64,000 nt of DNA from Candidatus Eiseniibacteriota bacterium (GTDB lineage Bacteria; Joyebacterota; Joyebacteria; Joyebacterales; Joyebacteraceae): assembly GCA_043815815.1 (NCBI GenBank), contig JBDRIO010000029.1, positions 13,650 through 77,649 on the forward strand, given 5' to 3'. The translations under genes and the position numbers were made by a program. Of the stretch, positions 23,227 to 58,867 are shown in pieces. Within the stretch, counting starts at the first letter, position 1, and each line of letters opens with the position of its first letter. The notes beneath the pieces were generated by a model. It had not been told where the DNA came from and did no database searches. It saw only the letters and a program-made list of their open reading frames with translations.

Positions 23227-23269
23227 CGATTCTCCTTCCGGCTGAAACGTGCCGCTCGCGCCGTCCCGC

Positions 23270-26716: not shown

Positions 26717-26722
26717 TATAAT
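26717..26722 (+). promoter_or_regulatory. Extended -10 element TGgTATAAT upstream of the nuclease gene
   Basis: ttgtggTATAATggcag lies 77 nt upstream of ATG 26799. GGAAGGAG RBS at 26782-26789. Confidence 0.4.
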
Positions 26723-26798
26723 GGCAGAACGGACTGCACCCGGTGACGGGAACCGGACGTCAAGCATGCGACCTGCCCTGCGGAAGGAGCTGCCTCCC

Positions 26799-37129: not shown

Positions 37130-37155
37130 GCGGGAACACGTGCTATAATTGATTC

Positions 37156-38685
37156 ATGGATGCACAGCTCGGCACGATCCCATCGGCCCGCGCGCTCGCT
37201 GTCCTGGTCGCGCTCGTCGCGCTCATCGCCCCGTCGTACGGGGCGAGAGCCGACATCGTCTCCGGTCCGGGTCGCGGCGCTCGTGGCGCGGATCCCGCGG
37301 CTTCGGCTCTCTCCGGGGCGGGTCCGTCCGGGCCCCGCGCTGCCAGGGTCGTGGGGGCCGATCTCTCGTTCGTCCCTGAGCTCCAGTCGCTCGGCGCCGA
37401 GTTCCGCGTGGGAGGGGAGCCGGTCGATCCTCTCGAGGCCTTCCACGACCACGGCCACCGACTCGTGCGGCTCCGCTTGTGGCACACACCCGACGAGCCC
37501 TGGCAGGGGCTCGACGCCACGGTGGCGCACGCTGTCGCCGCGAAGCTCGCCGGCCACGAGATCATGCTCGACATCCACTACTCGGACACGTGGGCCGACC
37601 CGGCGCATCAGACGAAGCCCGCGGCGTGGCAGTCGCTCGCGTTCCCTGCTCTCGTCGACTCGGTCTACGCGTACACGAACGCGGTGATCAGGCGCTTCCG
37701 TGACGAGGGCGTTGTTCCTTCGTACGTCCAGATCGGCAACGAGATCAGCAGCGGACTCCTGTGGAGTGACGGACGAGTGGGCGGCGCGTGGGACACTCCC
37801 GGGCAGTGGGACAAGCTCGGGACGCTTCTGTCGACGGGTGCCGCCGCGGTCCGGGACAGCCTCGACCCGTCGGAACGCCCGCTCATCGTCATCCACGTCG
37901 ACAACGGCGGCAGCAACGGTCTCTGTCGCTGGTTCTTCGACAACGTGGTGGCGGAGGGAGTCGACTTCGACATCATCGCGGTTTCGTTCTACCCGTGGTG
38001 GCACGGGACGCTCCCGGAACTCGAGTACAACCTGCACGACCTCGCGGCGACCTACGGGAAGGGCCTCATGGTCGTCGAGACGGCCTACCCGTGGACGCTC
38101 GACTGGTACGACGGCGTCCACAACTTCGTGGGTTCCGCAGACCAGCTCCACCCGGGCTATCCGGCGTCGCCGGAAGGCCAGCTGGCGTTCCTCGAGGATC
38201 TTCTCGATGTCGTCGAGGGCGTTCCGGGAGATCTCGGATTGGGCGTGATCTACTGGGAGCCCGGTTTCCTCTCGGTGCCTGGAGGCCCCGGCAACCCCTA
38301 CGAGAACCTGACGCTCTTCGACTTCGACGGCGATGCGTTGCCCGGCCTCTCGTACGCGCTGTTCTGGGGCACCGACGTGCCGGGCGGCGACGACGGCCAC
38401 GGCCTGGCGCCTCTGCTCTCTCCCGGCGTTCCGAACCCGTTCGCGTTCTCGACGAGTCTGGCGTTCACTGTCCCGTCGGGCGGAGCCGAAGTGGACGTCG
38501 GAGTGTACGACGTCTCCGGGAGGCAGGTGGCGAGTCTGGCGAGCGGCCATCGTGCAGAGGGAGTGCACCGGCTTGCGTGGTCGGGAAGGGCAGACGGCGG
38601 AAGCGATTTGTCCACCGGGGTCTACTTCTGCAGAGCGGAGGTCGGCGGCCGTTCGGAGATGACGAAACTCGTGCTCATCAGGTAG
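37156..38685 (+). CDS. Secreted GH53 endo-beta-1,4-galactanase (arabinogalactanase) with T9SS-type C-terminal domain
   Basis: Signal peptide; GH53 blocks GADLSFVPELQSLG, YVQIGNEISSG, IYWEPGF. CTD VPNPFAFSTSLAFTVPSGGAEVDVGVYDVSGRQVASL...VYFCRAEVGGRSEMTKLVLIR. Confidence 0.85.
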   Translation: MDAQLGTIPSARALAVLVALVALIAPSYGARADIVSGPGRGARGADPAASALSGAGPSGPRAARVVGADLSFVPELQSLGAEFRVGGEPVDPLEAFHDHGHRLVRLRLWHTPDEPWQGLDATVAHAVAAKLAGHEIMLDIHYSDTWADPAHQTKPAAWQSLAFPALVDSVYAYTNAVIRRFRDEGVVPSYVQIGNEISSGLLWSDGRVGGAWDTPGQWDKLGTLLSTGAAAVRDSLDPSERPLIVIHVDNGGSNGLCRWFFDNVVAEGVDFDIIAVSFYPWWHGTLPELEYNLHDLAATYGKGLMVVETAYPWTLDWYDGVHNFVGSADQLHPGYPASPEGQLAFLEDLLDVVEGVPGDLGLGVIYWEPGFLSVPGGPGNPYENLTLFDFDGDALPGLSYALFWGTDVPGGDDGHGLAPLLSPGVPNPFAFSTSLAFTVPSGGAEVDVGVYDVSGRQVASLASGHRAEGVHRLAWSGRADGGSDLSTGVYFCRAEVGGRSEMTKLVLIR

Positions 38686-38706: not shown

Positions 38707-40096
38707 CTATCGAAGAAGGACCAGCTTGGCGGTGGAGTGGAGCCCGCCCAGCGCGAGTCTCGCGAAGTACACGCCGGACGCCACGCGGCTTCCGGCGTCG
38801 CTGCGTCCGTCCCACGCGAAGAGGGCCGGGCCGGCGGAGAGACGCCCGCTGGCGAGCGCTGCGACCTGGCGACCTCGGGCGTCGTAGACCAGAAGGTCCA
38901 CCTGCGAGCCTCCAGGAGGGACGACGAACGTGAAGGTCGTCCACTCGTGAAGCGGATTCGGCGCGGCACCGAGCGCGAGCGTCCCGGAGTCCTCCGGGAT
39001 CCCGGAAGAGCTTCCGCAGAGACACCCGATGCCCCACGCCCCGATGTCTCCACCGCCCTGGCCGGCTCCAAGGCACGGCGAGCAGTCCTCGAGCGTCAGC
39101 ACGCCCTCGGTCGACGCGCAGAGGAGCGGGTCCTCGAAGATGTTGTCGCTCGCGTTGCCGCACGGCTCGTCGCCGCCCTCGTTCCCGTACACGCAGCAGT
39201 GGTCGATCGTGAAGACGCTCGTACCGGGGCAGTAGAACGCGGTTCCCTCGGTCGAATGCGCGACGATGCAGTTCGTGAAGGTGGGCGTCGCGTCGAAGCC
39301 GTACGCCGCGCCGCCCTGTGATGCCGCGTTGTACGCGAGAGTGCAGTTCCTGAAGACCGGCGACGAGTAGCAGAAGTAGACGCCGCCGCCGTATGTCGGC
39401 GCGGTGTTGCCCGCGAAGGTGCACCGCGTGATCGTGCCGCCGTTGTAGAGGATCCTGAGGCCGCCCCCGCCGTTCGTGGCGACGTTGTCAACGAAGCTGG
39501 TTCCCCTCACGGTCGACACCGAGTTCCTGGCGAACATGCCCGCCCCGTCGTCCGCGGTGTTGTCCCTGAAGAGACAGTCCTGGACGACGACCTGCGACTG
39601 CTCCACGTAGACGGCACCACCCAGCCCGCCGCTCCCGGCGGTGCCGGCCGCGTTCCAGACGAACCGACACTCCGCGAGCTTGGGCGAGGACCCGTAGCAG
39701 TAGACGGCTCCGCCCGACGTGCCGTCGTATCCGTACGCGATCGTGAATCCGCGCACGACGGACGTCGTGTCCTCGCCTGACGTGAAGGAGAACGCGCGTG
39801 CGGCTCCCTGGCAGTCTATCGCGGTCGAGGCGGCGCCGCCCTCCGAGAGCAGCGTCACGCCCTTGCCGGCGAAGTCCAGATTGGTGTTCGGTCCGCCCGA
39901 ATACGTGCCTGCCGCGACGAGGACCGTGTCGCCGGGGGCGGCCGCGGTGAGCGCGGCCTGGATCGACGCGTGATCGCCGGCGGGCCCGACGGTGAGCGTC
40001 GCGGCGTTCAGGGTGGCGCAGGCGAGCGTGAGAGCGGCAGCCGTTGACGGGACGAGCGCGAGCCAGCCCCGCGTGCGCAAGCGGCAGGCCTTCAAT
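38707..40096 (-). CDS. Secreted right-handed parallel beta-helix repeat protein (pectate-lyase-like fold) with T9SS-type C-terminal domain
   Basis: Repeated NxxAxxGGG beta-helix rungs. CTD APNPLHEWTTFTFVVPPGGSQVDLLVYDARGRQVAAL...VYFARLALGGLHSTAKLVLLR. Probable TTG start at ~40096 preceded by GGAGG (signal LKACRLRTRGWLALVPSTAAALTLACA). The ORF track's 40554 start is upstream non-coding. Confidence 0.6.
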
Positions 40097-40389
40097 GCGG
40101 CCTCCTGTCCGTGACGGCGGGAGCGGCCTCCAGGGGGCCGCTTCTCACTCAGGATACCCCCGTTTCTTCGATGCGTCAAGAAGTCACAGAGAGGGGTGTA
40201 CACGCAGTTGGCATTCTGTGAGTTCACGGCGCGTTCTCTGTGCGTCCTCATTACCGGCTGCGCGTTCCGCGTTCCGGGGCATCTTGAAGAGGGCAAGAGA
40301 CTTGCGGTGCTGAGCACATAGCCGGCTAGCGTCTCTGGCACGCCAAATGCATTGGACGGGTCCAGTTGCGCTGTGATCTGGAGGTGGAC

Positions 40390-40966
40390 CGTGAACCGGA
40401 CCGCGATCATAGCGACCTCGGTAGCACTCCTCTTCGCCACCTGTGGACATGCCGCCCGCGAGGGCGGCATAGCGGGGGACCTGAGCCCCGGCGTCCGCGC
40501 CAGCTTCAAGCACAGGATCATAGTCGAACAGGAAACGTGGCCCTCGTCTCTCATGGAGACTCGCGAGGGCCGCGTCGCTTTGGAGCTCGAGGCGCGGGGA
40601 GGGTTCCGTCTTCACGTCCGCGTGCGCGAGAACCCGGGCGACTATGTGGTCTGCATCGTCTACGTCGAGGGCGGAGGGAGGGTCGTGCTCGACGAGGCCT
40701 CGAGCTTCATCTTCCACTACGAAGACCGCTCGGTCGAGAGCACCGAGATCCTGCTGACCGATTCCATCGAAGAGCGGAGCGTGTGGAGCACGAGCGATAG
40801 CGCGGTCGTTCTGAGGGACGACTCCAGCATGTACGCGAAGGTACGAAGCGGCGGTTATCTGACTATTGTTCGTTTTCCCAGGGGCTCGCTTCCGGGAGGC
40901 GGAGGCTGGGTCCCCGGCTCGTTCGAGCTGAGAGGAGGTGAATGCGATGCGTACGCTCAAGGGTAG
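40390..40966 (+). CDS. Hypothetical lipoprotein
   Basis: VNRTAIIATSVALLFATCGHAA lipobox signal. No recognisable domain. ORF track start 40352. Confidence 0.4.
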
Positions 40967-43159: not shown

Positions 43160-43471
43160 ATGGCCGACAAGGTCCGCAGCACTCCCCGAAGCGCCTCGCC
43201 GAAGTATTGGAGGAAGCCGCTCGACGCCGACAAGATCAAGGTGCCGCACGGCGAACTCCACATACTGGTCGAACGCTGCAAGGGGTGCCAGTTCTGTGTC
43301 GAGTACTGCCCGAGGGACGTCCTCGACATGTCAGAGGACTTCAACCACAAGGGTTATCATTACCCCATCGCCGGGAACGAGAACGGCTGCGTGAACTGCC
43401 GGCTGTGCGAAATGCTCTGCCCGGAGTTCGCCATCTTTTGCCTCGAGGTGGAGGAGGAGGGTAGCGGATGA
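43160..43471 (+). CDS. korD: 2-oxoacid:ferredoxin oxidoreductase delta subunit (2x[4Fe-4S] ferredoxin)
   Basis: CKGCQFCVEYCP and CVNCRLCEMLCP motifs. Stop overlaps the alpha-subunit start (ATGA). Confidence 0.8.
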   Translation: MADKVRSTPRSASPKYWRKPLDADKIKVPHGELHILVERCKGCQFCVEYCPRDVLDMSEDFNHKGYHYPIAGNENGCVNCRLCEMLCPEFAIFCLEVEEEGSG

Positions 43472-44628
43472 GGACGGCTGATCCCAGGGGGGTCTTGACG
43501 GGCGAGCACTACCTCGACGGCGACCACGCGGCGGCGGAAGGCGCGCTCGCCGCCGGCTGTCGCTTCTTCGCAGGCTACCCCATCACACCTTCCACTGAAG
43601 TCGCAGAGAGGATCGCGGCCAGGTTCCCCCGAGTAGGGGGACTTTTCGTGCAGATGGAGGACGAGCTGGCTTCGATGGCGGCGATCCTGGGCGGCGCCTG
43701 GGCCGGCGCCAAGTCGATGACGGTGACGTCGGGTCCGGGGTTCTCGCTCATGATGGAGAACCTGGGGCTGGGGATCATGATGGAGGTCCCGACGGTGATC
43801 GTTAACGTGCAGCGCGGCGGTCCGTCGACCGGTCTTCCGACGCTTCCAGGGCAGGCGGACATGATGCAAGCGCGGTGGGGTTCGCACGGCGACTACGAGA
43901 TCATCGCCGTCTCTCCAAGTTCGCCGCAGGAGGCGTTCGACCACACGATCATGGCGTTCAACTTCGCCGAGAAGTACCGCGTTCCCACGCTCGTAATGAT
44001 GGACGAGTGCGTGGGACACATGACCGAGAAGGTCGTCATCCCCGAGGCGGAGGACATCGAGATCGTCCCCCGCAAGTGGTACGAGGGGAAGAAGGGCGAT
44101 TACCTGCCGTACAAGGCCGACGACGACATGATCCCCTGGATGGTGAAGGCCGGGGACGGGCACAGGTTCCACACGACCGGACTCACGCACGACGAGAGGG
44201 GTTATCCGGTCATGACCGCCGAGTGCCAGGAGGAGTGCGTCGGTCGACTCGTCAACAAGATCCGATCGAGGGTCGACGAGATCGTCGTCCTCGAGGAAGA
44301 GGGGATCGACGGCGCCGACGTGGTCGTCGTGTCGTACGGCATCACGGCCCGGGTCTCGATACCCGCGGTCGAGAAGGCCAGGGCGGACGGCGTCAAGGTG
44401 GGGAGCCTCCGGCTCGTGACGGTGTGGCCGTTCCCGGAGAACCGCATCCGCGAGCTCGCCGGGAAGGTGAAGTCCTTCGTGATCCCGGAGATCAACTACG
44501 GCCAGATCTACTACGAGCTCGAGCGCTGCGCCGGCGGGAAGGCAAGGACCATCCTCGTACCGCACGGCGGCGGGTGGGTGCACGACGAGAAAGACATCTA
44601 CGACGCCATCAAGGAGGGGGCGAAATGA
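43468..44628 (+). CDS. korA: 2-oxoacid:ferredoxin oxidoreductase alpha subunit
   Basis: POR/KOR alpha N-terminal domain: GAxxAGCRFFAGYPITPSTEV, MEDELASMAAILGGAWAG, GPGFSLMMENLG. Confidence 0.9.
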   Translation: MRTADPRGVLTGEHYLDGDHAAAEGALAAGCRFFAGYPITPSTEVAERIAARFPRVGGLFVQMEDELASMAAILGGAWAGAKSMTVTSGPGFSLMMENLGLGIMMEVPTVIVNVQRGGPSTGLPTLPGQADMMQARWGSHGDYEIIAVSPSSPQEAFDHTIMAFNFAEKYRVPTLVMMDECVGHMTEKVVIPEAEDIEIVPRKWYEGKKGDYLPYKADDDMIPWMVKAGDGHRFHTTGLTHDERGYPVMTAECQEECVGRLVNKIRSRVDEIVVLEEEGIDGADVVVVSYGITARVSIPAVEKARADGVKVGSLRLVTVWPFPENRIRELAGKVKSFVIPEINYGQIYYELERCAGGKARTILVPHGGGWVHDEKDIYDAIKEGAK

Positions 44629-45503
44629 AAACCAGGACCCCTGTCGCTCCCGGCCCGCCGCACCCGATGGAAGAACTGCTGCGGATGGACCGCATCCCGC
44701 ACATCTGGTGTCCGACCTGCGGGCTGGGCACGGTCGTCACGGCGTTCGCGGCGGCCTTGGAGAAGCTCGAGATGTCGCTCGATGACGTCGTCGTCGTGTC
44801 CGGCATCGGTTGCACCGGCCGCGTCGCGGGGTACGTCAAGATCGATTCATTCCACACGACCCACGGTCGCGCGATACCCTTCGCGACAGGTATTCATCTC
44901 ACCAACCCGAAGCTCAAGGTCGTCGTCATAAGCGGCGACGGGGACCTCATCTCCATCGGAGGGAACCACTTCATTCACGCGGCGCGCAGGAACGTCGACA
45001 TCACCGTCATATGCGTCAACAACTTCATCTACGCGATGACGGGAGGGCAGGTTGCGCCCACGACGCCGCTGACGGCGAACGCCTCCACGATGCCGTACGG
45101 GAACTTCGAGCGTCCCTTCAACATCCCGTATCTCGCTGAGTCATCGGGCGCGGTCTACGTGGCACGGTGGTCGGCCCTTCACGTGCGGCGACTCACGGCC
45201 GCGATGGCCGAGGCCGTGCAGAAGCCCGGCTTCTCTGTCGTCGAGGTGATCAGTCCCTGCTCCACGCTGTACTCCCGGCGCAACAGACTTGGGACAGGCC
45301 TGGACCTCATGAGGTTCTATCACGACAATTGCGTCATCAAGCACGGCGCCGACACGCGCGGCCTGGACATCGGCTTCCAGGAGGAGATCACCGTCGGCAA
45401 GTTCGTTGATATCGAGCGTCCGACGTACGTGGACGCGATGAACACGTGGTACGGAGAGGTCTTCGGGGACGACTACGAACTCTACGAGGGGTCGGCCAAG
45501 TGA
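44625..45503 (+). CDS. korB: 2-oxoacid:ferredoxin oxidoreductase beta subunit (TPP-binding)
   Basis: WCPTCGLGT, SGIGCTGR, GDGDLISIGGNHFIHAARRNVDITVICVNNFIYAMTGGQ TPP-binding fold. Confidence 0.9.
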   Translation: MKTRTPVAPGPPHPMEELLRMDRIPHIWCPTCGLGTVVTAFAAALEKLEMSLDDVVVVSGIGCTGRVAGYVKIDSFHTTHGRAIPFATGIHLTNPKLKVVVISGDGDLISIGGNHFIHAARRNVDITVICVNNFIYAMTGGQVAPTTPLTANASTMPYGNFERPFNIPYLAESSGAVYVARWSALHVRRLTAAMAEAVQKPGFSVVEVISPCSTLYSRRNRLGTGLDLMRFYHDNCVIKHGADTRGLDIGFQEEITVGKFVDIERPTYVDAMNTWYGEVFGDDYELYEGSAK

Positions 45504-46498
45504 ACGAGATAAGGATCTCCGGATTCGGCGGACAGGGCGTGATCAGATGCGGCTACATCGTGGGCAAGACGGCCGCCATCTTCGACAACAAGCACGCTAC
45601 GTTGACGCAGAGCTTCGGCCCCGAGGCCAGAGGCAGCGCGTGCAGCGCGCAGATCATCGTGGACGACGTTCCGATCCGATACCCGTACCTCACGAAGCCG
45701 GACACGGTGGTCGCGATGTCGCAGGAGGCGTTCGACAAGTTCGGTTCCGACATCACCCCGGGCGGAACGCTGATGATCGACGACGACCTCGTCAAGCCCG
45801 AGAGTCCTCCGAAGGGCTGCAAGGTCTACGCGATCCCGGCAACGAGGATAGCCGAGGGTCTGGGCAACAGGATCGCGGCGAACATCGTGATGCTCGGCTT
45901 CTTCACCGCCGTCACCGACATCATCTCCGTGGAGGCCGCGCGGGACGCCCTCCCGAGTTCGGTGCCTTCCCGCTTCATCGAGCTCAACGAGAAGGCCTTC
46001 GAGGAAGGCTACAGGTTCGGCTCCGAGCTTCTGGGCAAGGAACCCGTGCCGCCGCCGGCCGAGCGCTCCTCGAAGGGCGGCGAGTACAGGGCGTCCAAGG
46101 TCACGACGGCCAAGGCCGGCCGTCGGGCCACGACGCTCGCGCGGGTGAACGTGATGGACGGGGACGCGAGGAAGGGCGCCGCCGGGAAGAGCGCCGCGAA
46201 GTCGGCCGCAAAGGAAGCTGCAGGGGCGGCAATCCCTTCGACCGCGAAGAGGGTCGGGAAGAGGGCGTCCTCGGCGAAGCCCGCGAAGAGGGCCGGGAAG
46301 ACCGCGGCGAAGAAGAAGGCCGGAAAGAGGGCGTCCGCGGCAAAGAAGAAGGCCGGAAAGAGGGCGTCCGCGGCAAAGCCCGGGAAGAAGGCGCCCGCGA
46401 AGAAGGCCGGGAAGACCGCGGCCAGGAAGAAGGCCAAGTCCCCGGCGCGCAAACCTGCCAGGAAGACCGGCAAGAAGAAGTCCCCCGCTAGGAAGTGA
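45500..46498 (+). CDS. korC: 2-oxoacid:ferredoxin oxidoreductase gamma subunit with ~140-aa Lys/Ala-rich histone-H1-like C-terminal tail
   Basis: GTG start overlapping korB stop. Gamma-subunit core [24 protein letters not shown]...[11 protein letters not shown]. Tail ...[12 protein letters not shown]...[62 protein letters not shown]. Confidence 0.8.
46309..46374 (+). repeat. Perfect 33-bp tandem duplication inside the korC tail-coding region
   Basis: gaagaaggccggaaagagggcgtccgcggcaaa x2, encoding [11 protein letters not shown] twice. Confidence 0.8.
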
Positions 46499-46519: not shown

Positions 46520-49500
46520 GATGGACAGGGGCGTTCTCGTCATCGGAGGCGGCATAGCAGGCATTCAGGCCGCCCTCGATCTGGCGGACGCGCAGTTCAA
46601 GGTCTATCTCGTCGAACGCGAACCGTCGATCGGCGGGAAGATGGCCCAGCTCGACAAGACGTTCCCGAGCATGGACTGCGCCATCTGAATACTCGGTCCC
46701 AAGATGATGGATGTCGGTCGGCATCCGAACATCGAGCTCTGGACCAACAGCGAGGTTGTTAAGGTCAAGGGCAAGGCCGGGGATTTCAAGGTCAGCGTGC
46801 TCCGCAGAGCGCGGTGCGTCGACGTCGACGAGTGCACCGCGTGCGGGGAGTGCGCCAAGTCGTGCCCCATTGCCGTGCCCAACGAGTTCGACCTGGGATT
46901 GGGCACCCGCAAGGCCATCTACCAGCCGTTCCCTCAGGCGGTGCCGTCCGCCTACATCCGCGACATCGAAACCTGTCTTGGGCACTTCCCGCTGGCCTGC
47001 GGAAGGTGCGCCAAGGCCTGCGAGAAGGGGTGCATCGACTACGACGAGCAGGACGTCGTGGAGGACGTAGCCGTGGGGTCGATCGTCGTGACCACGGGCT
47101 TCGATTTCTACGACCCGGGCGAGGCGAGCGAGTACGGCTACAAGCGCTTCCACAACGTCGTGTCGAGCCTCGAACTCGAGAGGCTCCTCTCCGCGAGCGG
47201 ACCCACGAGGGGCTTCCTCACGCGCTTCACGGATGGCGAGTCCCCCAAGAGGATCGCCTTCATCCAGTGCGTCGGCTCCAGGTGCGTGAAGCGTGACATC
47301 CTCTACTGCAGCCGCATCTGCTGCATGAACGCCGTCAAGGACGCCCTCCTGATCGAGGAGCTCTTCCCGGGCGCAGAGCTGCTCATCTTCAACATCGACG
47401 TGCGCGCCTTCGGGAAGGGCTTCGAGGCCTTCTACCGCCGGTCGCAGGGCAACGCTCAGCTCCGCTATGTGAAGGGCAAGCCCTCCAAGGTGTCCGAGGA
47501 CCCGGACACCGGCCATCTCTTGCTTCACTACGAAGACTCGGTGACCGGCACGATCGAGCACTCCGAGGTCGACATGGTCGTGCTCTCGTCCGCGCTCGTG
47601 CCCTCCGAGGGGACCGCCGGGCTCGCCGAGGTGCTGGGAGTGGGCGTCGCTTCCGACGGGTACATAGAGAGTCGCGACGCCTCGGCCTACCCCCTCGACA
47701 CGACGCGCCCGGGCGTGTACGTGGCAGGTTGTGCGGCCGGGCCCAAGGACATCACCGATTCCGTGGCGGAGGCTTCGGGCGCCGCCGCGCTTGCCGCGTC
47801 GCACGTGCTCAAACACAAGCTCGAAGACACGAAAGTGGAGGTCGAGCAGAGAGACGTCAGCGGTCCTCCGCGCGTTGGGGTCTTCGTCTGTCACTGCGGC
47901 ATCAACATCGGGGGAGTGGTCGACGTCTCCAAGCTGTCCGAGTACGCCGGCACGCTGCCCGACGTGGTCTTCGCCGAGCATCTCCTCTTCGCCTGCGCGG
48001 AGAGCACGCAGAGACAGATACAGGAGCGTGTCGCCGAGCACGACCTGAACAGGGTCGTCGTCGCCGCGTGCACGCCGAGGACGCACGAGCCCGTTTTCAG
48101 GCAGGCGGTGGCCGCGGTCGGCCTGAACCCGTATCTCGTTGAGATGGTCAACATCCGCGACCAGTGCTCGTGGGTCCACGCCAAGGAGCCGGTGGCGGCC
48201 ACCGAGAAGTCGCGCGACCTCGTTCGCATGGCCGTGGCCCGTTCGCGACTCCTCACGCCCCTGTCCGAGAAGGAGCTGGACGTCGGTCACGAGGTGCTCG
48301 TCGTCGGAGGCGGCATCGCGGGCATCGAGACCGCCATAGACCTCTCTCGGAGAGGGTTCTCCGTGCACCTCATCGAGCGCGAGGACGCGCTCGGCGGGCG
48401 GGTGGCAGGCCTGGCGGGAACGTATCCGAGCGGGCGGAGCGGCAGGTCGCTGGTCGACGAGAAGGTCGAGGCTCTGACCGCGACCAAGGTCGACGTCAGG
48501 ACGGGCACCGTCCTCAAGAGCGTCACCGGCTTTGTCGGGAACTTCGAGGCGACGCTGGCGCCGGCGGGCGGCGGCCCGACCGAAACACTGTCCGTCGGCG
48601 CCATCGTCCTCGCCATCGGCGCCGACCTCTACGAGCCCGGACCCGACGACTTCGGCGCCGGTGTCGTGCCGGGCGTCATCCCCAACACCGAGGTCGAAGG
48701 TCTCCTCGAGGGGAAGGGCGCTCCCAAGCTCGGAGGCAAGAAGGTCGAGACGGCCGTCTTCATCCAGTGCGTCGGGTCGCGAGGGGAGAAGGGGAATCCG
48801 GAGTGCTCCCGCTACTGCTGCCAGTCCGCCATCCGTCAGGCGATCGAGCTTCGGAAGCGCGGCGTCGACGTCGTCGTTCTGCACCGTGACGTCCGCGTCT
48901 ACGGCCGCGGGGCCGAGGAGATGTACCGGCGCGCCCGGGGGATGGGCGTGACGTTCCTGGGCTACGACCCGGCCGAGCCGCCCGTCGTCGACCGCGACGG
49001 CGACTCGCTGCGCGTGAGCCTCGCCGTGCCGTCGCGCAACATGACGATCGAGATACCCGCCGACGTCGTGGCCCTCTCGCTGGGCATGGTGCCCAGGAAG
49101 CACGACACGACGGCGATGCAGGAGATGCTCAAGGTCCCGATCGGGAGCGACGGCTTTCTCCTCGAGCGGCACCCCAAGTTCGGCCCCGTCGAGACGAACA
49201 CCGAGGGCGTCTTCCTGTGTGGATGCAGCCAGGCGCCCAAGGACATCGGTGACTCGATATCCCAGGCGTCGGCGGTCGCCTCGAAGATCGGCGCGCTCCT
49301 CGCTCGCGACACGATCACGCTGGAACCGATCGTCTCGGTCGTGAGCGACAGGCTCTGCCGCGCATGCTCGGAGTGCGTGATCGTCTGTGAGTTCAACGCG
49401 ATAGAGATAGGCGAGCTTCCGGACGGGCGGCGCGTGGCGATCGTGAACGAGGCGCTCTGCAAGGGGTGCGGGACGTGCGCCGTGGCATGTCCTAGCGGGG

Positions 49501-49622
49501 CCATCTCGATACGGCACTTCACCGACGAGATGATCGAGACGATGATGGAGGCCTACCTGAGGCCGACCGCTGAGCACGGGTCCGAAGCGTGGCCGGAGAC
49601 GGACGTTGGCGAAACGGGCTGA
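46520..49622 (+). CDS. hdrA: HdrA-like flavoprotein, selenocysteine-containing (in-frame TGA near 46685-46687), double-HdrA fusion with C-terminal 2x[4Fe-4S] ferredoxin
   Basis: N-terminus [22 protein letters not shown]...[10 protein letters not shown]-[TGA][13 protein letters not shown] matches the HdrA DCSMC(I/L)LSPK site, where the second Cys is Sec in known selenoprotein HdrAs. Then a Cys-rich FAD domain, an inserted Fe-S domain ([14 protein letters not shown]...[10 protein letters not shown]), a second FAD domain ([17 protein letters not shown]), then [12 protein letters not shown] / [12 protein letters not shown]. The ORF track only shows the portion after the TGA (46704..49622). Confidence 0.75.
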
Positions 49623-50187
49623 CAGCACGGAGACCGGGCGTGCCTCCGCGAAGGGGACGCGTGCCGGGAGCGCCTCGGGCGGCGCCGGGTCCTCGAACTC
49701 CGGGCGCGGCGCGTTCGAGCCGAGGGTCGTCGCCTTCGCGTGCAACTGGTGCAGCTACCCGGCAGCGGACGCCGCAGGCATCAACAAGATGCAGTATCCG
49801 CCGAACGCGCGGATCATACGCGTCATGTGCGCCGGGCGCATCCACCCCGCGTTCGTTCTGAAGGCTCTCGAGCTCGGCGCAGATGGCGTCCTCGTGTCCG
49901 GCTGCCACTTCGCCGACTGCCACTATCTGTTCGGCGCCAAGCGGGCGGCAGAGCAGTTCGAGAAGACGGCGGAGCTTGTCAGGCTGCTCGGCCTTCCGAA
50001 GGAGAGGGTCCGCTTCGAGCAGATATCCGCCGCCGAGGCGCCGGAGTTCGTGCGCGTGATGCACGAGTTCGTCGAGGACCTGAAGCGACTCGGCCCGAGC
50101 CAGCTCGGCGGGCCCGTTGACGGCGGGAGCCGACCGGGCGACCGCGGGATCGACCTGCCCGGAGTTGTGGGAGAGGAGCGCACGTAG
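49606..50187 (+). CDS. mvhD: MvhD-like protein (methyl-viologen-reducing hydrogenase delta subunit family, [2Fe-2S])
   Basis: [67 protein letters not shown]. Confidence 0.8.
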   Translation: MAKRADSTETGRASAKGTRAGSASGGAGSSNSGRGAFEPRVVAFACNWCSYPAADAAGINKMQYPPNARIIRVMCAGRIHPAFVLKALELGADGVLVSGCHFADCHYLFGAKRAAEQFEKTAELVRLLGLPKERVRFEQISAAEAPEFVRVMHEFVEDLKRLGPSQLGGPVDGGSRPGDRGIDLPGVVGEERT

Positions 50188-50189: not shown

Positions 50190-51338
50190 ATGAAGGACCT
50201 GACGGAGGCGATCAGGGTCTCACGCGCGCAGTTCTGCTACGAGTGCGGGAAGTGCACGGGCGTCTGCCCGGTCGCGCGGTACGACAGCGGATTCTCACCC
50301 AGGTCGCTGCTCGTGCGCGCTGTGCGCGGGGAGGAAGGGAAGCTCGTTCAGGACGTGAACGTCTGGTCGTGTCTGACGTGCGGGCTGTGCGACACCCGCT
50401 GCCCGGCGGGCATCGACTACGGGGTCCTGACCAAGGCCGTGAGGGCGGTCGTGCGGCGCGAGGGCGGCGAGGGGACCTGCACTCACGGAGGGGCGGTCCA
50501 GTCGCTCACGAAGATAATGACGAGGCCCAAACTCGAGCAGGACAGGCTCGGCTGGGTCGACGGGACGATGAAGACAAAGGCCAGGGGAGACACGGTCTTC
50601 TTCGTCGGGTGCGCGCCGTACTTCGAGGTCCTCTTCGAAGAGACGGGCGCCAGGTCGCTCGAGACCTCGCGGGCGTCGGTCCGTCTCCTGAACGCGGCCG
50701 GCGTCGTGCCCGCGCTCCTTCCGAACGAGCGCTGCTGCGGCCACGACCTCCTCTGGAACGGCGACGTCGAGAACTTCCGGATGCTCGCGAGGCAGAATCT
50801 CAAGATGCTCGAGGAGGCGGGCGCCAAGCGCGTCGTCGTCGCGTGTCCCGAGGGGTACGCCACACTGAGGAACGATTACCCCGCTCACTTCGGCGAGCTT
50901 CCGTTCGAGGTCGTTCACCTCACGGAGTTCCTCGCGGAGTCAATCGAGGACGGAAGGCTCACGTTCGGAAGTAACGGCGAGGAGACCGTCGTCACCTACC
51001 AGGACCCGTGCAGGCTGGGGCGCCACCTCGGCGTCTACGACGCTCCGAGGCGAGTCATCGAGGCGCTGCCTGGCGTCACGCTGGTCGAGATGGCCCACTC
51101 CCGAGAGAGGGCCATATGCTGCGGGGTGGGGGGATTCCAGAACTGCACGTCGTTCAGCAAGATGATTCAGGCCGCCCGCCTCCGCGAGGCGAAGGCGACG
51201 GGCGCCGACACGCTCGTCACGGCCTGCCCCAAGTGTGAGATACATCTCGGATGCGCGCTCAAGGACCCGGTGCTCGAGGACGAGCTCGGGCTGCGCATCG
51301 TGGACGTAGCGGCCCTGGCCGCGTCGCGTCTCGCGTAG
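50190..51338 (+). CDS. HdrD-like fused HdrC/HdrB protein (2x[4Fe-4S] plus two CCG domains)
   Basis: CYECGKCTGVCP and CLTCGLCDTRCP, then CCG motifs NERCCGHD and AICCGVGG...CPKC. Confidence 0.75.
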   Translation: MKDLTEAIRVSRAQFCYECGKCTGVCPVARYDSGFSPRSLLVRAVRGEEGKLVQDVNVWSCLTCGLCDTRCPAGIDYGVLTKAVRAVVRREGGEGTCTHGGAVQSLTKIMTRPKLEQDRLGWVDGTMKTKARGDTVFFVGCAPYFEVLFEETGARSLETSRASVRLLNAAGVVPALLPNERCCGHDLLWNGDVENFRMLARQNLKMLEEAGAKRVVVACPEGYATLRNDYPAHFGELPFEVVHLTEFLAESIEDGRLTFGSNGEETVVTYQDPCRLGRHLGVYDAPRRVIEALPGVTLVEMAHSRERAICCGVGGFQNCTSFSKMIQAARLREAKATGADTLVTACPKCEIHLGCALKDPVLEDELGLRIVDVAALAASRLA

Positions 51339-51392
51339 CGGAGCGTGTCTCGTGCTGTGAGTCGTACCTCGCGTAGTGAACGGAGGAGCGTG

Positions 51393-53831
51393 ATGGCAAC
51401 GAGGGATGACGGTGACGGGAAGCTCCGGGTAGGCGTGTTCGTCTGCCAGTGCGGTCTGAACATCGCCGGAACCGTGGACTGCGCGGCTGTCGCCGAGTTC
51501 GCTGAAGGCTTGGACGACGTCGCCATCGTGTACAACAACAAGTACACGTGTTCCGAGCCCGGACAACTCGAGCTTCAGAAGGCCATCGAAGAGCACGACC
51601 TGAACCGAGTGGTCGTCGCGTCGTGCTCGCCGCGCATGCACGAGCCCACGTTCAGGGCGGCACTCGAGGGGGCGGGGCTGAATCCCTACCTACTGGAGAT
51701 GGCCAACCTCCGCGAGCACTGCAGCTGGGTGCACATGGGGGAGCCCGACGCAGCAACGGAGAAGGCCAAGGATCTCGTGAAGATGGCCGTCGCCAGAGCC
51801 CGCGCGCTCGCGGCTCAGACGGAGATGGTCGTCCCCATCACGCAGACGGCCCTGGTCGTCGGAGGAGGCGTAGCAGGAATCCAGGCTTCGCTCGACCTCG
51901 CCGACGCCGGTTATCAGGTCTACCTGGTCGAGAAGGAACCCTCCATCGGTGGGATCATGGCTCAGATCGACAAGACCTTTCCCACCATGGACTGCTCCAT
52001 ATGAATTCTCGGCCCCAAGATGGCGGATGTCGGTCGGCATCCGAAGATCGAGCTCCTGGCCTACAGCGAAGTTGAGGACGTCAAAGGGTACGTGGGCAAC
52101 TTCACGGTCACGGTCCGCAAGAAGGCGCGGTACGTGGACGCGAGCGAGTGCACGGCGTGCGGTGACTGTAAGGACGTCTGTCCGGTGACCGCCCCGGACG
52201 AGTTCGAGATAGGCCTGGCCACGAGGAAGGCGATCTACCAGCCGTTCCCGCAGGCCGTTCCGTCGGCGTACGTTCTGAACATCGACGAGTGCCTCGGAAA
52301 CAACCCCATCGCGTGCGGGAAGTGCCTCGAGGTCTGCGACAAGAAGTGCATCGACTACGACGATGAGGACGAGCTGGTTCAGATCGAAGTGGGAACGGTC
52401 ATCGTCTGCGTCGGCATGGACGTCTACGACCCGACGATCATGGACGAGTTCGGGTACACGAGGTTCGAGAACGTCATCACGTCGATGGAGTTCGAGCGCC
52501 TCATCAACTCCGGAGGTCCGACCGAAGGCCACCTGGTCAAGCTCACCGACGGAGAGCAGCCTGGTACGGTGGCGTTCATCCAGTGCGTGGGCTCGAGGGA
52601 CGCGACCCGCGGCAACCCGTACTGCAGCAACTTCTGCTGCATGAACACGGTGAAGGATTGCCTCCTCATCAAGGACCACTACCCCGGCGTCGACATCAAG
52701 GTCTTCTACATCGACATCCGCGCCTTCGGCAAGGGGTTCGAGGACCTCTTCCAGAGGAGCAAGGAGGCGGGGACCCAGTACATCCGCGGCATCCCCGGCG
52801 AGATCGAGGAGGACCCCGAGACGAAGGGTTTGAGGCTTTTCGTCGAGAACACGACCGACGGCGGGGTCGAGCGCCACGACGTCGACATGGTCGTGCTCTC
52901 GGTCGGCGCCATTCCCAGGAAAGACAGCGACGTCATCCAGCGGCTCCTGACGCTCCAGCGGAGCCAGGACGGGTTCTTCCTCGAGGCGCACCCGAAGCTC
53001 AAGCCGGTCGACGCGGCCACGCAAGGCGTCTTCTTCGCCGGCTGTGCCGAGAGCCCGAAGGACATCAAGGACTCCGTGACGCAGGCGAGCGCGGCCGTCG
53101 CGCGCGCCAACCGCCTCATGATGCAGGGGAAGGTGAAGGTCGAGGCCATCACGTCGACCGTGATCCCGGAGCTCTGCAAGTCGTGCGGCATATGCGTCAA
53201 GGTCTGTCCGTATCACGCGATCTCGTGTGACACGAAGGCCAAAGCGGCCGCGGTCGTCGTCGAGGCCGCGTGCGCAGGCTGCGGAGCCTGCAGCGCGGAG
53301 TGTCCGTTCGGCGCCATAACGATGAAGCACTTCACCGACGACCAGATCGAGGCGCAGATCGACGCGATGCTCGACACCGATCCACAGGACAAGGTGCTAG
53401 CGTTCGCGTGCAACTGGTGCTCGTACTCGGGCGGGGACCTCGCGGGGACGAACAGGCTCCAGTACCCGGCGAACGTCCGGCTCATCAGGACGATGTGCTC
53501 CGGGCGCGTCGACAAGAAGTTCGTGCAGAGGGCGTTCGCCAGAGGCGCACCGGTCGTGCTCGTGTCCGGTTGCCACTTCGCGGACTGCCACTACATCAAC
53601 GCCGTGCACTGGACGCAGCGGAGGGTCGAGAAGCTCTGGGACGAGCTGGAGAAGAAGGGCGTCCGTCCCGAGCGGCTGCAGCTCGAGTGGATCTCGGCGG
53701 CCGAGGGTCAGAAGTTCGCGACCGTCATGCGCGCCATGGAGGAACTGCGGCAGACGGTCACGCCCGCTGAGATCGAGAAATCCAGGAAGGCATATGCCAG
53801 TGCCCTCGAGCCCACCGAGGTCACCGCCTAG
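51393..53831 (+). CDS. hdrA: HdrA-like flavoprotein, selenocysteine-containing (in-frame TGA 52002-52004), fused C-terminally to an MvhD domain
   Basis: GGAGGAG RBS; N-terminal Fe-S domain [14 protein letters not shown]...[10 protein letters not shown]; FAD domain ...[10 protein letters not shown]-[TGA][13 protein letters not shown]...; ferredoxin [12 protein letters not shown] / [12 protein letters not shown]; C-terminal Mvh[18 protein letters not shown]...GCHFADCHY. The ORF track splits it into 51345..52004 and 52020..53831, consistent with one TGA-interrupted frame. Confidence 0.8.
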
Positions 53832-54116: not shown

Positions 54117-57100
54117 ATGCGCAAGCCCTTCGTCATTCTCGAAGACGAGGCCAGGACGCTCGCGAACTACCACGTTCGCTACGTCGACGCTGCCCGCCGG
54201 CACCACGAATCCCTCGTGGAGAAGCTCGAAGCCAAGGGTCTGTACGACAGGGCCCACCTCTGGCAGCTCGCGGCCGAGCCGGCGACGGAGTTCCGCATCG
54301 TCGAGCAGGCGGCCGACTCGTTCGAGGAGAAGCTCGCCTTCCTCGGCTGCTACTACTGCCTGCAGCTTCTCCGAATGAACCTCGACGCCGTCGACTCGCT
54401 GCGGCTGAGCCTCATCTCGCCGGTCGACAGGACCGGCACCGAGCGCGACTTCATGCTCGGAATGGGCGCCGGGTTCCGGGCGCTGTCCGGCGCCTACATG
54501 GAGAGACTACTCTCTCTCTTCATCGCCGACCGCGAGACGCCGGCGTACGTCCTGATCGGCGTCGGCACGCGCGCCGACCAGGACGACATCGACGTCGGCG
54601 TGATCGACGACGGCGGCGAGGGCGGGGAGGCGCTCGATACGGCCATAGCGCGCATGAGCGTTCAGATGCTCAAGTACGCCACGAGCCTCCACTTCCACCT
54701 CTCGGAACACGTGGGCGAGCGCAGCTACAGCGCGACCATCCCCGAGTACAGGAGCACGCTCGACAAAGGGGTAAGGGACTTCGTCATCGTCAATGAGCTG
54801 GTCGGAAGCGCGCCCATCCTGGGTGACACGAGGCTCTTCGCGGAGTTTCAGAACGAGGTCGTGTCCCGCTACTACCACCGGCCCGGCGAGGACCCGAAGT
54901 GGCACGTCGGATACCTGCGCGGACTGCTCGGCGAGATCCAGTCTCTCATCGGACGCCCCCTCGGCCGTGACCACATCAATCCCAAGGACGACGGTCTCCG
55001 CATGACGAAGGGGCTCCTCGCGGTCCTCCGGACGATCCACGGGGTCGAGGAGGTCAACGCCTGGAGGATCATCGACTCGCTTCGCAGGGTCTCGCCGGAG
55101 GACGCCGGGCTCTACGACGACCTCGAGCGGTCGCTGAGCTTCCTCGAGGTCTTCCGCTCCGTCTATCAGCTCCTGGTGGCCCAGGACGAGGAGATCTACC
55201 TCGACGACGCGGTGATGCAGGCGAACCTGGCCCGCGTCGGGGAGGTCATGGGCTACAGGACGGTGGGTCTCATCGGTCCCGAGACGCACCTTCTCGTCGA
55301 GTACTACGAGCACGTGGGGCACGTGCGGAGGATCGTGAGCGAACTGACCGAGCGCTGCACGCAGCACTTGAGGGAGACGACCGTCTTCGCCGACATGGTT
55401 CTCCCCGAGTATCGTGGCAACACGGCGGTCGACTTCGCGGAGCGCAGCGCGTTCTTCCGCGGAACGACGTTCTGGCAGGACCTCCTCGAGCTCCTGGAGC
55501 AGGACGACTGCAGGCTCCTCTGCAGATACCTTGATGACCTGAACGAGCTCCCGCCGGGGGCGCGCGCGAAGGTCGTCGACGCCCTGAGCGCGTGCGCCGA
55601 GTACGCTCCCGGCACCGTGATGACGCTCATCGTCATCCTGGCCCGCAACCCGCACTGCGAGGGAGCGCTCGAGCTCTTCGAGGAGCTGGAAGCGGCATTC
55701 AGGTCGAGGCTGACGAGCGTGCCGTACGCCGCGCTCCCCGCCATCGAGCTCTTCTACCGGCGTCCGAGGCTCGTCAACCGCTATCTCATGAGCATCGGTA
55801 CGGCGGCCACGCTCGAGTTCGCCGACCTGCTCCGCCGGGAGCTGTGGGACCCCGACGTCGCGTTCTGGTGCGGCAAACTCGTTCTGCTCGCTGACCTGCA
55901 CGGGCGCGCGAGCAGGTACTTCAGGCAGTACCTGGATCGTGCGGGGGAGAAATATCCGTCGTGCCTGACGCTCCTGGATGACACGGCGTCGCTGCGGGAC
56001 ATGTCGCGCGGCGTCCTGGCGGGCGTCGAGCGCAAGCCGTCCTCACGAGAGAAGATGGAGAGGCTCGGCGACTTCTACGACCTGGAGTTTCTGCGGATAG
56101 GCTTGAAGACGCTGAACGGAGTTCCGGCGGCGCGCACAGACGGCGAGTTCACCGCCGCCGCCGACACCTACATTCAGGATCTCTTCGACCTGTGCAAGCG
56201 CGAGGTCGACGAGGCGGTCCACTTCCGCGTGGCCACGCACGACCTCCTCGCCGTCTACGCCACGGGAGGGCTTGGACGAGAGCAGGCGTACGACGACGAC
56301 TTCGACCTGCTCGTGCTCGTCAACACGAACCACGAGGACGTGCGCGCCTACGCGGACGCGATCGTGGCCAAGATGAACGCGGAGATCATCAAGCGCGGGA
56401 CTCTGCCCCACTACAGGCTCGCCGACCACATCGGGCACTACGTGGCCACCCTGGACGAGTTGCAGAGCGTGCTCTCGACCGAGCGGTCGGACACCTTCGT
56501 CGACCAGTCGCAGGTTCTAGAGGCGCGCATGATCGTGGGGACGAGCCGGTTCGAGAACGAGTTCCGCAGGAAGATCGTGGGGCGCCATGTCTTCGACGAG
56601 CGGTGTCGGTACGTGAGCAGGATGCGTGAGGAGATCGAGTCGCGTCACCGCGATGCTCGGGCCATGGGGCGCGAGCTCTCCAGCGTCAAGGACGGCGTGG
56701 GGAGTCTGCGCGACATCATCATGCTTCTGCTCATGTACAAGGCGGCCTACAGGCTGCATCGTCCGGTGAACGCGCAGCTTCTCACGGACCTGGCGAGGCT
56801 CGAGCCGACTCATCAGCGCGAGTTCCGCTTCCTGAGCGGGGCGCTCGAGTTCTTCAAGAACCTGCGCAACGCCTATCGCATGTCCGTCGGGGCGGAGGAC
56901 AAGCTCAGGCGCGAGTACTTCCACGTCGTGGCGCAGTCGATGGGGCTCTCGCTGGGTGACGACGAGGAGGCCCGGGAACTCCTGATGCGCGCGTATCGCG
57001 GATGCACGGTCCAGGTTGGCGAGGTCGTCGCGGCGCTGGCCCTCGAGCTCGAGCGGAGCTGCCTGGAACTCTCGGTTGAATCTGCGGACGCGTCGCCTCG

Positions 57101-57410
57101 TCCGTTGAGCGCCATGCCGCCCGGGGTCGGCCCCACGTGGCGGGGAGTGCCGAGGCGCGACGTTCCGTGGTACCCCACGATCGACGAAGGCGCATGCGAG
57201 GGCTGCGGAGCGTGTGAGGACCTCTGTTCATTCGGCGTGCTCGAACGGACGCGCGACGCCTCGACGGTTCGCGTTCGCCGCCGCTACGCGTGCGTCGTCG
57301 GATGCGTTCTCTGTTCCTCGGTCTGCCGGAGCAACGCGATCTCGTTCCCGGGGCTGTCTGTGCTGGAAGGGCTTTCGCAGAGCGGCGGGGCGGACGGCGG
57401 CGGTTCGTAG
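54117..57410 (+). CDS. GlnE-like protein with two nucleotidyltransferase (Pol-beta superfamily) modules and a fused C-terminal 2x[4Fe-4S] ferredoxin domain
   Basis: NTase motifs YVLIGVGTRADQDDIDVGVI and AVYATGGLGREQAYDDDFDLLVLV (compare GlnE GKLGGRELNYSSDLDLVFL). Each is followed by a GlnE-type helical domain. C-terminus CEGCGACEDLC...CVVGCVLCSSVC. 1097 aa. Confidence 0.65.
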   Translation: MRKPFVILEDEARTLANYHVRYVDAARRHHESLVEKLEAKGLYDRAHLWQLAAEPATEFRIVEQAADSFEEKLAFLGCYYCLQLLRMNLDAVDSLRLSLISPVDRTGTERDFMLGMGAGFRALSGAYMERLLSLFIADRETPAYVLIGVGTRADQDDIDVGVIDDGGEGGEALDTAIARMSVQMLKYATSLHFHLSEHVGERSYSATIPEYRSTLDKGVRDFVIVNELVGSAPILGDTRLFAEFQNEVVSRYYHRPGEDPKWHVGYLRGLLGEIQSLIGRPLGRDHINPKDDGLRMTKGLLAVLRTIHGVEEVNAWRIIDSLRRVSPEDAGLYDDLERSLSFLEVFRSVYQLLVAQDEEIYLDDAVMQANLARVGEVMGYRTVGLIGPETHLLVEYYEHVGHVRRIVSELTERCTQHLRETTVFADMVLPEYRGNTAVDFAERSAFFRGTTFWQDLLELLEQDDCRLLCRYLDDLNELPPGARAKVVDALSACAEYAPGTVMTLIVILARNPHCEGALELFEELEAAFRSRLTSVPYAALPAIELFYRRPRLVNRYLMSIGTAATLEFADLLRRELWDPDVAFWCGKLVLLADLHGRASRYFRQYLDRAGEKYPSCLTLLDDTASLRDMSRGVLAGVERKPSSREKMERLGDFYDLEFLRIGLKTLNGVPAARTDGEFTAAADTYIQDLFDLCKREVDEAVHFRVATHDLLAVYATGGLGREQAYDDDFDLLVLVNTNHEDVRAYADAIVAKMNAEIIKRGTLPHYRLADHIGHYVATLDELQSVLSTERSDTFVDQSQVLEARMIVGTSRFENEFRRKIVGRHVFDERCRYVSRMREEIESRHRDARAMGRELSSVKDGVGSLRDIIMLLLMYKAAYRLHRPVNAQLLTDLARLEPTHQREFRFLSGALEFFKNLRNAYRMSVGAEDKLRREYFHVVAQSMGLSLGDDEEARELLMRAYRGCTVQVGEVVAALALELERSCLELSVESADASPRPLSAMPPGVGPTWRGVPRRDVPWYPTIDEGACEGCGACEDLCSFGVLERTRDASTVRVRRRYACVVGCVLCSSVCRSNAISFPGLSVLEGLSQSGGADGGGS

Positions 57411-58358: not shown

Positions 58359-58867
58359 TTGTCGGTCGCCTCCAGGAGTTTTCTCATCTCGTCGACCGGG
58401 ACGTCCTTGAGGGGCTTGAGTCCCAGCCTCTCGCGCGTCTTGTGAACGACGGGCGTCACGACTCCGGCGACGCCCGTCTTCAGGATGTTCTTCGTGAGCA
58501 CGTTGACCGCGTCCGGCGCCACGCCCTTGCGGTCGGCGAGGTTCTTGAGCGCCACGATTACCTCGATAGGGCGAACGTCCTGGGGGCATCGCTCGTAGCA
58601 GCTGTAGCAGTTCGTGCACAGCCAGATGGGCGAATCGGGGGAGAGGAGCGCGTCGCCCCGGCCCAGCAGTACGTCGAGCAGGATGAGTCTGGGGTTGAAA
58701 CGCTCGGAGTAGCGGGCCGCCGGGCACTGCGCGACGCAGGCGCCGCACTGGTAGCAGTAGTTGTGGTGGTCCCCGCCCAGCACCCCGTCGAGTTCGCGTC
58801 GGAGGTCGAAGCTGAGTTCCACGTGGAGGCTCTTGTCGGCCCGGCTCTTGTCGTCTTTGTCCGGCAC
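58355..58867 (-). CDS. hdrC: Heterodisulfide reductase subunit C (2x[4Fe-4S])
   Basis: CYQCGACVAQCP and CTNCYSCYERCP. 4-nt overlap with the hdrB start. Confidence 0.85.
   Translation of the reverse strand: MPDKDDKSRADKSLHVELSFDLRRELDGVLGGDHHNYCYQCGACVAQCPAARYSERFNPRLILLDVLLGRGDALLSPDSPIWLCTNCYSCYERCPQDVRPIEVIVALKNLADRKGVAPDAVNVLTKNILKTGVAGVVTPVVHKTRERLGLKPLKDVPVDEMRKLLEATDK

Follow-up and report, generated by a model that had tools for sequence, protein, structure and literature searches.

The stretch of DNA analysed here, in its full length of 64,000 nt referred to as the window, derives from Candidatus Eiseniibacteriota bacterium (GenBank assembly GCA_043815815.1, contig JBDRIO010000029.1, positions 13,650 to 77,649 of the forward strand) and encodes two homologues of the heterodisulfide reductase subunit HdrA, here called gene A and gene B, each with a TGA codon in its reading frame that we read as a codon for selenocysteine (Sec). 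Gene A (46521..49622, + strand) encodes a single-chain double HdrA of 1033 amino acids with the putative Sec at residue 56. Its frame starts with ATG at 46521-46523, preceded at a distance of 6-11 nt by the Shine-Dalgarno-like AGGGGG, and ends with the stop codon TGA at 49620-49622. The sole in-frame TGA inside the gene is codon 56 (46686..46688), after which 977 codons remain open. The G+C content at third codon positions (GC3) is 0.90 before this TGA and 0.78 after it. An earlier interpretation made from the letters alone, the sequence-only reading, had placed the start at about 46520 and counted some 970 uninterrupted codons downstream of the TGA; the ATG is real but begins one base later, and the open stretch agrees with our count. 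It had also remarked that the open reading frame (ORF) track misses the 5' part, and indeed the ORF list of the window lets gene A begin only at 46704, the first ATG 3' of the TGA.

In a phmmer search of PDB sequences, the gene A protein matched 5ODC_A, the HdrA of Methanothermococcus thermolithotrophicus, in three collinear pieces with a whole-protein E-value of 9e-219. Residues 5-379 of gene A align with residues 146-515 of 5ODC_A without any gap across the TGA, and residue 56 falls on Cys197, the second cysteine of the DCSIC motif of 5ODC_A. The motif of gene A reads C53-A-I-U56, where U stands for the residue encoded by TGA, and homologues have TGT or TGC at this place. The assignment of the TGA to the conserved Cys/Sec position of HdrA, which the sequence-only reading had made, is thus borne out, as is its description of two HdrA-type modules with flavin adenine dinucleotide (FAD) domains in one chain: Pfam found two FAD/Pyr_redox regions and a C-terminal Fer4 domain, and a cysteine table built on an alignment of 5ODC_A with gene B and each half of gene A resolved the layout of the modules.

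Module 1 of gene A (residues 1-440, 46521..47840, + strand) holds the FAD-binding motif GxGxxG, C53/U56, an inserted 2x[4Fe-4S] ferredoxin with eight cysteines and a cluster motif formed by C250/C263/C267/C268. It is devoid of the N-terminal iron-sulfur (Fe-S) domain, of the C-terminal ferredoxin and of an MvhD domain. Module 2 (residues 449-1033, 47865..49619, + strand) contains the N-terminal HdrA Fe-S domain with C457, C459, C492, C517 and C549, a FAD domain with C750/C762/C766/C767 and a C-terminal 2x[4Fe-4S] ferredoxin (eight cysteines, C946...C990), again with no MvhD domain. At the positions of Cys194 and Cys197 it has Ser640 and Ser643, and the inserted ferredoxin is deleted. The cysteines of module 2 are invariant among 15 aligned sequences. 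Both four-cysteine sets, C250/C263/C267/C268 and C750/C762/C766/C767, align with C386/C399/C403/C404 of 5ODC_A (Cx12Cx3CC cluster). The two modules are thereby complementary in their domain pattern: the one with the Sec position has no N-terminal Fe-S domain, and the one with this domain has serine at the Sec position.

Gene B (51393..53831, + strand) lies 5 kb downstream of the TGA region of gene A and had not been mentioned in the sequence-only reading. It consists of two ORFs in one frame (51345-52004 and 52020-53831) that are split by a TGA. When read through from the ATG at 51393, it encodes a full-length HdrA fused to MvhD (HdrA2 type) of 812 amino acids, with the putative Sec at residue 204. 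The TGA (52002..52004, + strand) occupies the same position of the HdrA motif, C201-S-I-U204, and is likewise aligned with Cys197. Gene B carries the N-terminal Fe-S domain, the inserted ferredoxin, the FAD-proximal cluster, the C-terminal ferredoxin and the MvhD domain. Against the NCBIfam model NF040770 it scored 1194.5 bits (cutoff 1100) over model positions 1-777 of 777, while the halves of gene A scored 558 bits (model positions 140-566) and 534 bits, both below the cutoff; judged by these scores, gene A is a relative of this HdrA2 model and not a member of it. The occurrence of a second HdrA with a TGA at the matching position, followed by a hairpin as in gene A, gives strong independent support for reading the TGA as a Sec codon. 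A six-frame scan for TGAs with high GC3 on both flanks yielded many candidates, among which only those at 46686 and 52002 lie within recognisable coding sequence. The others were rejected by inspection, since without recognisable coding sequence they seemed to read high-GC genes out of frame or in antisense.

Downstream of both TGAs, RNAfold predicts a hairpin with the stem GGAUGUC/GGCAUCC of 7-8 bp and a GGUC loop, resembling a bacterial Sec insertion sequence (bSECIS). The hairpin of gene A (46708..46727, + strand) has its stem at 46709-46715/46720-46726 and its loop at 46716-46719, with an optional outer pair U46708·G46727. The hairpin of gene B (52024..52043, + strand) has its stem at 52025-52031/52036-52042, its loop at 52032-52035 and the outer pair C52024-G52043. 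Both lie in identical register, the UGA being separated from the stem by 20 nt and from the loop by 27 nt, and GGATGTCGGTCGGCATCC is found in gene B at an offset identical to that in gene A. The hairpin about 20 nt past the TGA noted in the sequence-only reading is therefore real, but its structure is a 7-bp stem closed by the GGUC tetraloop and not a stem of 5 bp with an 8-nt loop. The proposal that it could serve as a bacterial SECIS is supported by its fit to the published model and by nucleotide-level conservation that is found only in TGA-type genes.

The bacterial SECIS consensus model of Zhang and Gladyshev (2005), in the form summarised in PMC13188914, places 3-9 nt in the apical loop, with a G among the first two (G[G/U]), and 4-16 bp in the upper stem; the apical loop should follow the UGA at a distance of 16-37 nt, and the minimum free energy should not exceed -7.5 kcal/mol. 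Compared with this summary, both sites of the window have a loop of 4 nt and a stem of 7-8 bp. The loop is GGUC, and over 37 bacterial Sec sites both of its G residues are invariant and its U is at least 90% conserved. The distance of 27 nt to the loop is the same at both sites, and there are no indels in the 37 aligned sites. The 30-nt cores fold with -10.3 kcal/mol in gene A and -12.5 kcal/mol in gene B (8 bp; RNAfold). Applied to the homologues, the same parameters are passed by 35 of 37 Sec sites and by 8 of 81 Cys sites.

Over the 37 aligned bacterial Sec sites, 94% of the cells in the stem columns are paired, compared with 25-58% in shifted registers. The sixth stem pair varies between C-G (22 sites), U-A (9) and U·G (6), with zero mismatches. 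Codon choice points in the same direction. At codons +8, +10 and +12, the Sec-type genes, whose mean GC3 is 0.78, use GAT (38/38), GGT (38/39) and CAT (38/39), whereas Cys-type homologues with identical Asp, Gly and His residues have mixed codons; within the window, GAT, GGT and CAT account for only 10%, 10% and 14% of the usage. By these comparisons of aligned genes, the hairpin appears to be under selection at the nucleotide level, and this selection is specific to TGA-type genes. The consensus of the Sec-type genes is GGAUGYC-GGUC-GRCAUCC, located 20 nt past the UGA. Many orthologues that have K-A after ILGP (e.g. L008, L012 and L014) have an additional small hairpin, GGCC-NNNN-GGCC, which follows the UGA and precedes the SECIS stem. 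Neither gene of the window has it, so that it does not belong to the element universally.

A known element of this kind is the SECIS of Escherichia coli fdhF, a stem-loop that lies within the coding sequence shortly after the UGA and in which the G and U of the GGUC loop contact SelB. The apical loops of the two hairpins described here are identical to it. They differ from it in the distance between UGA and loop, 18 nt in fdhF versus 27 nt here, and in that the fdhF stem has a bulged U whereas the stems of the window are perfect. The fdhF sequence used for this comparison has identical (100%) matches annotated as fdhF in more than 5400 genomes.

From a scan of a genome collection with gene A, the best 80 loci were taken and the motif codon of each was determined. 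None of these is more than 57% identical to gene A, all of them cover both of its halves, and they come from bacteria as well as archaea. At the Sec site, TGA was found in 20 of 20 bacterial relatives scored. They belong to Calditrichota, Planctomycetota, Acidobacteriota, Gemmatimonadota, Ignavibacteria and a Desulfobacterium, and further include L004 and, from a separate look-up, the Eisenbacteria locus L081; the TGA is usually present in both HdrA genes, which lie 5-6 kb apart as in the window. TGT or TGC stands at the same site in the archaeal double HdrAs (Bathyarchaeia, Methanomassiliicoccales, Asgard) and in several bacterial homologues. When the Cys- and Sec-containing HdrAs were aligned, a check that the sequence-only reading had suggested, TGA and TGT/TGC shared the Cys197 column. 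Selenoprotein genes are by convention recognised by such a pairing of Sec and Cys in one alignment column.

Some of these loci contain further TGA sites. In seven Asgard loci (L024, L035, L044, L046, L052, L060 and L067), another HdrA paralogue lies upstream of the Cys-type double HdrA and has TGA as the corresponding codon (DDC[AS]I-TGA-ICGPKML), about 150-220 nt from the start of the locus. No downstream hairpin was found at these Asgard Sec sites, which is consistent with the SECIS elements of archaea being located in the 3' untranslated region. In a Desulfobacterium sp. scaffold (L074), TGA sites at 6154 and 9305 lie inside one extended match of about 4.6 kb, which points to two neighbouring Sec-HdrA genes or else to a single, larger HdrL-like protein containing two Sec residues.

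Based on the position of the codons, the pairing with cysteine codons in homologues and the conserved hairpins, we propose that both TGAs (46686 in gene A and 52002 in gene B) are selenocysteine codons, a reading to which we assign a probability of roughly 0.9. According to the established mechanism in bacteria, a complex of SelB·GTP·Sec-tRNASec would bind the GGUC hairpin 20 nt past each UGA, and SelB would bring Sec to the ribosomal A site in place of release factor 2. The predicted products are the 1033-residue double HdrA of gene A and the 812-residue HdrA-MvhD fusion of gene B. According to Chadwick et al. (2022, PMC9012536), HdrA protomers share a cluster ligand: Cys197, located in the thioredoxin-reductase domain of one protomer, coordinates the N-terminal cluster of the other. 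In the solved complex it extends from the FAD domain and completes a [4Fe-4S] cluster of the partner's N-terminal domain. In gene A both partners would be fused in one chain, with module 1 contributing the Sec and the inserted ferredoxin and module 2 contributing the N-terminal cluster domain and the C-terminal ferredoxin. By homology, Sec56 would be the selenolate ligand of the inter-module Fe-S cluster in the N-terminal domain of module 2, on the ferredoxin-side branch of a bifurcating Hdr-type complex.

Several points weigh against this proposal. A single solved enzyme is the basis for assigning the residue, by homology, as an Fe-S ligand. Variation over the 37 bacterial Sec sites is confined to one stem pair, and the relatedness of the sequences inflates the shuffle statistics, which should not be taken as probabilities. 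The hairpin coincides with the conserved residues D-V/A-G-R-H-P, an overlap that the sequence-only reading had already seen, and its conservation may in part be that of the protein. At 66% GC the folding energy is not distinctive: comparison with shuffled sequences gave z-scores of -1.8 and -2.4 for the 30-nt cores and of -1.5 and +0.2 for 60 nt. Due to these weak z-scores we place the weight of the SECIS case on the comparison between genes and not on the folding energy. The hairpin had no match in Rfam, neither in the whole window at the gathering threshold nor at 46600-46820 with E-values up to 10. Finally, no selA, selB, selD or tRNA-Sec was found in the 64 kb of the window (Pfam on ~39 ORFs; ARAGORN). 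ARAGORN found no tRNA of any kind in the window, and a tRNA scan of 22 related loci returned no tRNA-Sec and only one tRNA-Phe call (100 nt, minus strand, L012).

A different amino acid could in principle be inserted by the same kind of hairpin. UGA would then be recoded as cysteine by a tRNASec-like tRNACys(UCA) together with a SelB paralogue (selC*/SelB*). Loci with a selC* tRNACys, selB* and cysS* do exist, and their opal-suppressing Cys-tRNA works (PMC5389517); moreover, no feature of the window shows which tRNA decodes the UGA. However, the genomes with selC* also had a complete Sec apparatus (PMC5389517), and this type of recoding is known from few deltaproteobacterial and Nitrospirae-like lineages, not from the one studied here. 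HdrA, on the other hand, is an established Sec family with exactly this CxxU position, and the GGUC loop equals that of the canonical SelB-binding SECIS. We therefore regard recoding as cysteine as very improbable.

Somewhat more improbable still is that the TGA of gene A is a true stop, resulting from a pseudogene, from an error of assembly or sequencing, or from a split gene that yields a peptide of 55 residues and a protein of 972 residues starting at the double codon ATG-ATG. Gene callers give exactly this split, and an ATG does lie 15 nt past the TGA. But no Shine-Dalgarno-like run precedes this internal ATG, and many orthologues read K-A-I-D-A-G past the TGA and have no Met for re-initiation. 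The 55 residues hold the GxGxxG FAD-binding motif, which the downstream fragment would be without. Because the TGA is shared by two paralogues in the window and by at least 20 independent genomes, an error or a recent pseudogene is excluded. A TGA read as a sense codon, either in a variant code (Trp or Gly) or through read-through by a near-cognate tRNA, would in principle also leave an open frame, though nothing specific speaks for it, and we consider its probability negligible. TGA is the ordinary stop of 14 of the 35 Pfam-supported genes of the window, gene A included, and the codon is thus not reassigned. The only two TGAs in recognisable coding sequence both stand at Cys-equivalent positions where homologues have only Cys. 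The GC content of 66% is also unlike that of the known lineages with reassigned TGA, which are low in GC. Selenocysteine thus remains the preferred reading of both codons. The stop codon usage of the window is an observation in its own right. A genome of 66% GC is expected to have TGA as its dominant stop, and by comparison the window looks rich in TAG, with 21 TAG, 14 TGA and no TAA among the 35 Pfam-supported genes; the figures for L081 are TAG 6, TGA 5 and TAA 1.

Directly upstream, genes of a 2-oxoacid:ferredoxin oxidoreductase (POR_N/PFOR_II, TPP_enzyme_C and POR gamma in Pfam; 43468..46498, + strand) abut gene A. Between genes A and B lie an MvhD/FlpD-type subunit in its Cys form (49606..50187, + strand; Pfam FlpD, E = 1.3e-49), which has no in-frame stop and an uncertain start codon, and an HdrD/GlpC-like Fe-S protein, also in the Cys form, with 2x[4Fe-4S] and two CCG domains (50190..51338, + strand; Pfam CCG and Fer4_8, translation). 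Gene B is followed by a gene for a protein of 1097 amino acids and then by convergent genes on the minus strand, namely an HdrB-like gene with a CCG domain (~57477-58350) and an HdrC-like gene with Fer4_8 (58355-58867), both identified from the ORF translations and the synteny with L081, the HdrC-like gene also by Pfam. This order is kept in the Eisenbacteria locus L081, including the upstream oxidoreductase genes and the CCG/Fer4_8 genes. From its gene content, the cluster looks like a ferredoxin-linked, flavin-based electron-bifurcating Hdr-type module, presumably with a thiol or disulfide as its substrate. Judging by gene order, the likely partners of the two HdrAs are the MvhD, HdrD-like and HdrCB-like proteins, beside the 2-oxoacid:ferredoxin oxidoreductase.

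Two genes of this neighbourhood have unusual extensions or domains. The 1097-residue protein (54117-57410, + strand) has a GlnD-type nucleotidyltransferase/uridylyltransferase-like region at about residues 680-990 that scores far under the family cutoffs. At its C-terminus it carries a 2x[4Fe-4S] ferredoxin motif, and its gene adjoins the hdr cluster here and in L081 (13197-16478). The POR gamma gene (45446-46498, + strand) ends in a C-terminal tail of about 150 residues, a histone H1-like stretch with many Lys, Ala and Pro residues (KKKSPARK); at the corresponding position in L081 no gene is called.

The heterodisulfide reductase alpha subunit is listed as a selenoprotein family with the motif CxxU and the model NF040770 in a 2026 review (Table 1 in PMC13188914), and both genes of the window carry this motif. 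Sec-containing HdrAs have been described in Methanococcales, Methanopyrus, many Deltaproteobacteria and Clostridia, and hdrA-hdrA fusions are known in bacteria (PMC1794560). The genes of the window share with the Sec-HdrAs of Methanococcales, Deltaproteobacteria and Clostridia the family, the Sec position (Cys197), the CxxU motif and the clustering with MvhD/FrhD- and HdrB/C/D-type genes. They differ from them in belonging to the Eisenbacteria lineage, and gene A differs in being a rearranged fusion of two modules that scores under the cutoff of NF040770. In Syntrophobacter, FrhD and GlpC are Sec families as well (PMC1794560), while the MvhD and HdrD/GlpC-like genes of the window are Cys forms.

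Tandem or fused HdrAs, as in anaerobic methanotrophic archaea (ANME) and in the MetFV-HdrABC-MvhD complex of Moorella thermoacetica, are regarded as built-in heterodimers with complementary losses of Cys197 and of the N-terminal domain; examples in ANME are HdrA3/4 and the tandem HdrA5/6 and 12/13 (PMC9012536). The modules of gene A resemble them in being complementary for the Cys197 position and the N-terminal Fe-S domain, and in that only one module, module 2, has the C-terminal ferredoxin. Compared with HdrA3/4 of ANME the order is reversed, with the Cys197/Sec-bearing module first, and the bridging residue is the predicted Sec in gene A but Cys in the archaeal double HdrAs retrieved. The sequence-only reading had called the double HdrA unusual, which does not hold, since all of the best 80 loci from bacteria and archaea cover both halves and the type has been published (PMC9012536). 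A Sec-containing HdrA is also listed for Moorella thermoacetica (Zhang et al. 2006, PMC1794560), and it may be the fused HdrA of that species. Among the papers searched, none names both Eisenbacteria and selenocysteine, and none names Moth_1194. Sec-HdrA and fused HdrA are both already established, and what is new here is a further example in the Eisenbacteria lineage and not a new kind of system.

The other genes of the window include six predicted secreted proteins with a FlgD_ig-type C-terminal domain (841-2397, 5704-7962, 17270-19369, 26646-29546, 37153-38685 and 38707-40611), annotated as an esterase, an alpha-amylase, an M1 peptidase, an endonuclease I, a GH53 protein and a beta-helix protein. 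Their common C-terminus suggests a shared sorting or attachment domain. The abundance of such secreted FlgD_ig proteins agrees with the Eisenbacteria lineage of the window, as do its best named database hit (81% identical) and the gene order shared with it. At 22594-25840 on the minus strand, a gene for an MttB-family methyltransferase, a small ORF and a gene for a B12-binding corrinoid protein follow one another; the small ORF matches the methionine-synthase activation domain only marginally.

The in-frame TGA has consequences for the annotation of this family in databases. Among the 120 best database homologues of gene A, the closest of which is 84% identical, 109 begin with M(M)D[VAT]GRH and thus with the first Met past the TGA. 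The other 11 comprise nine shorter fragments and two full-length proteins with Cys (DCSIC and DCSMC). In L081 (GCA_014728245.1), which is 81% identical, the counterpart of gene A is called as two products of 55 and 976 amino acids, and the gene B orthologue is called through the TGA as one product of 812 amino acids. Gene callers routinely truncate HdrAs of the Sec type. The gene A-type entries lose the FAD-binding motif together with the Sec residue, and metabolic reconstructions of many candidate phyla are distorted in consequence. The conserved SECIS consensus could be used to find and repair such truncated HdrA genes.

In conclusion, our analysis marks this Eisenbacteria lineage as a likely selenium user. 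It may be that the fused double HdrA employs a selenolate as the only ligand that one module lends to a [4Fe-4S] cluster of the other, in the low-potential branch of an electron-bifurcating complex, and that it does so in a large bacterial group with few cultivated members (Eisenbacteria, Calditrichota, Planctomycetota, Acidobacteriota, Gemmatimonadota and Ignavibacteria) whose core anaerobic redox metabolism would depend on selenium, a dependence hidden so far by truncated annotation; we give this wider proposal an even chance of being correct. The possible tuning of the bridging Fe-S cluster by a selenium ligand makes a reasonable biochemical question, though not a long-standing one.

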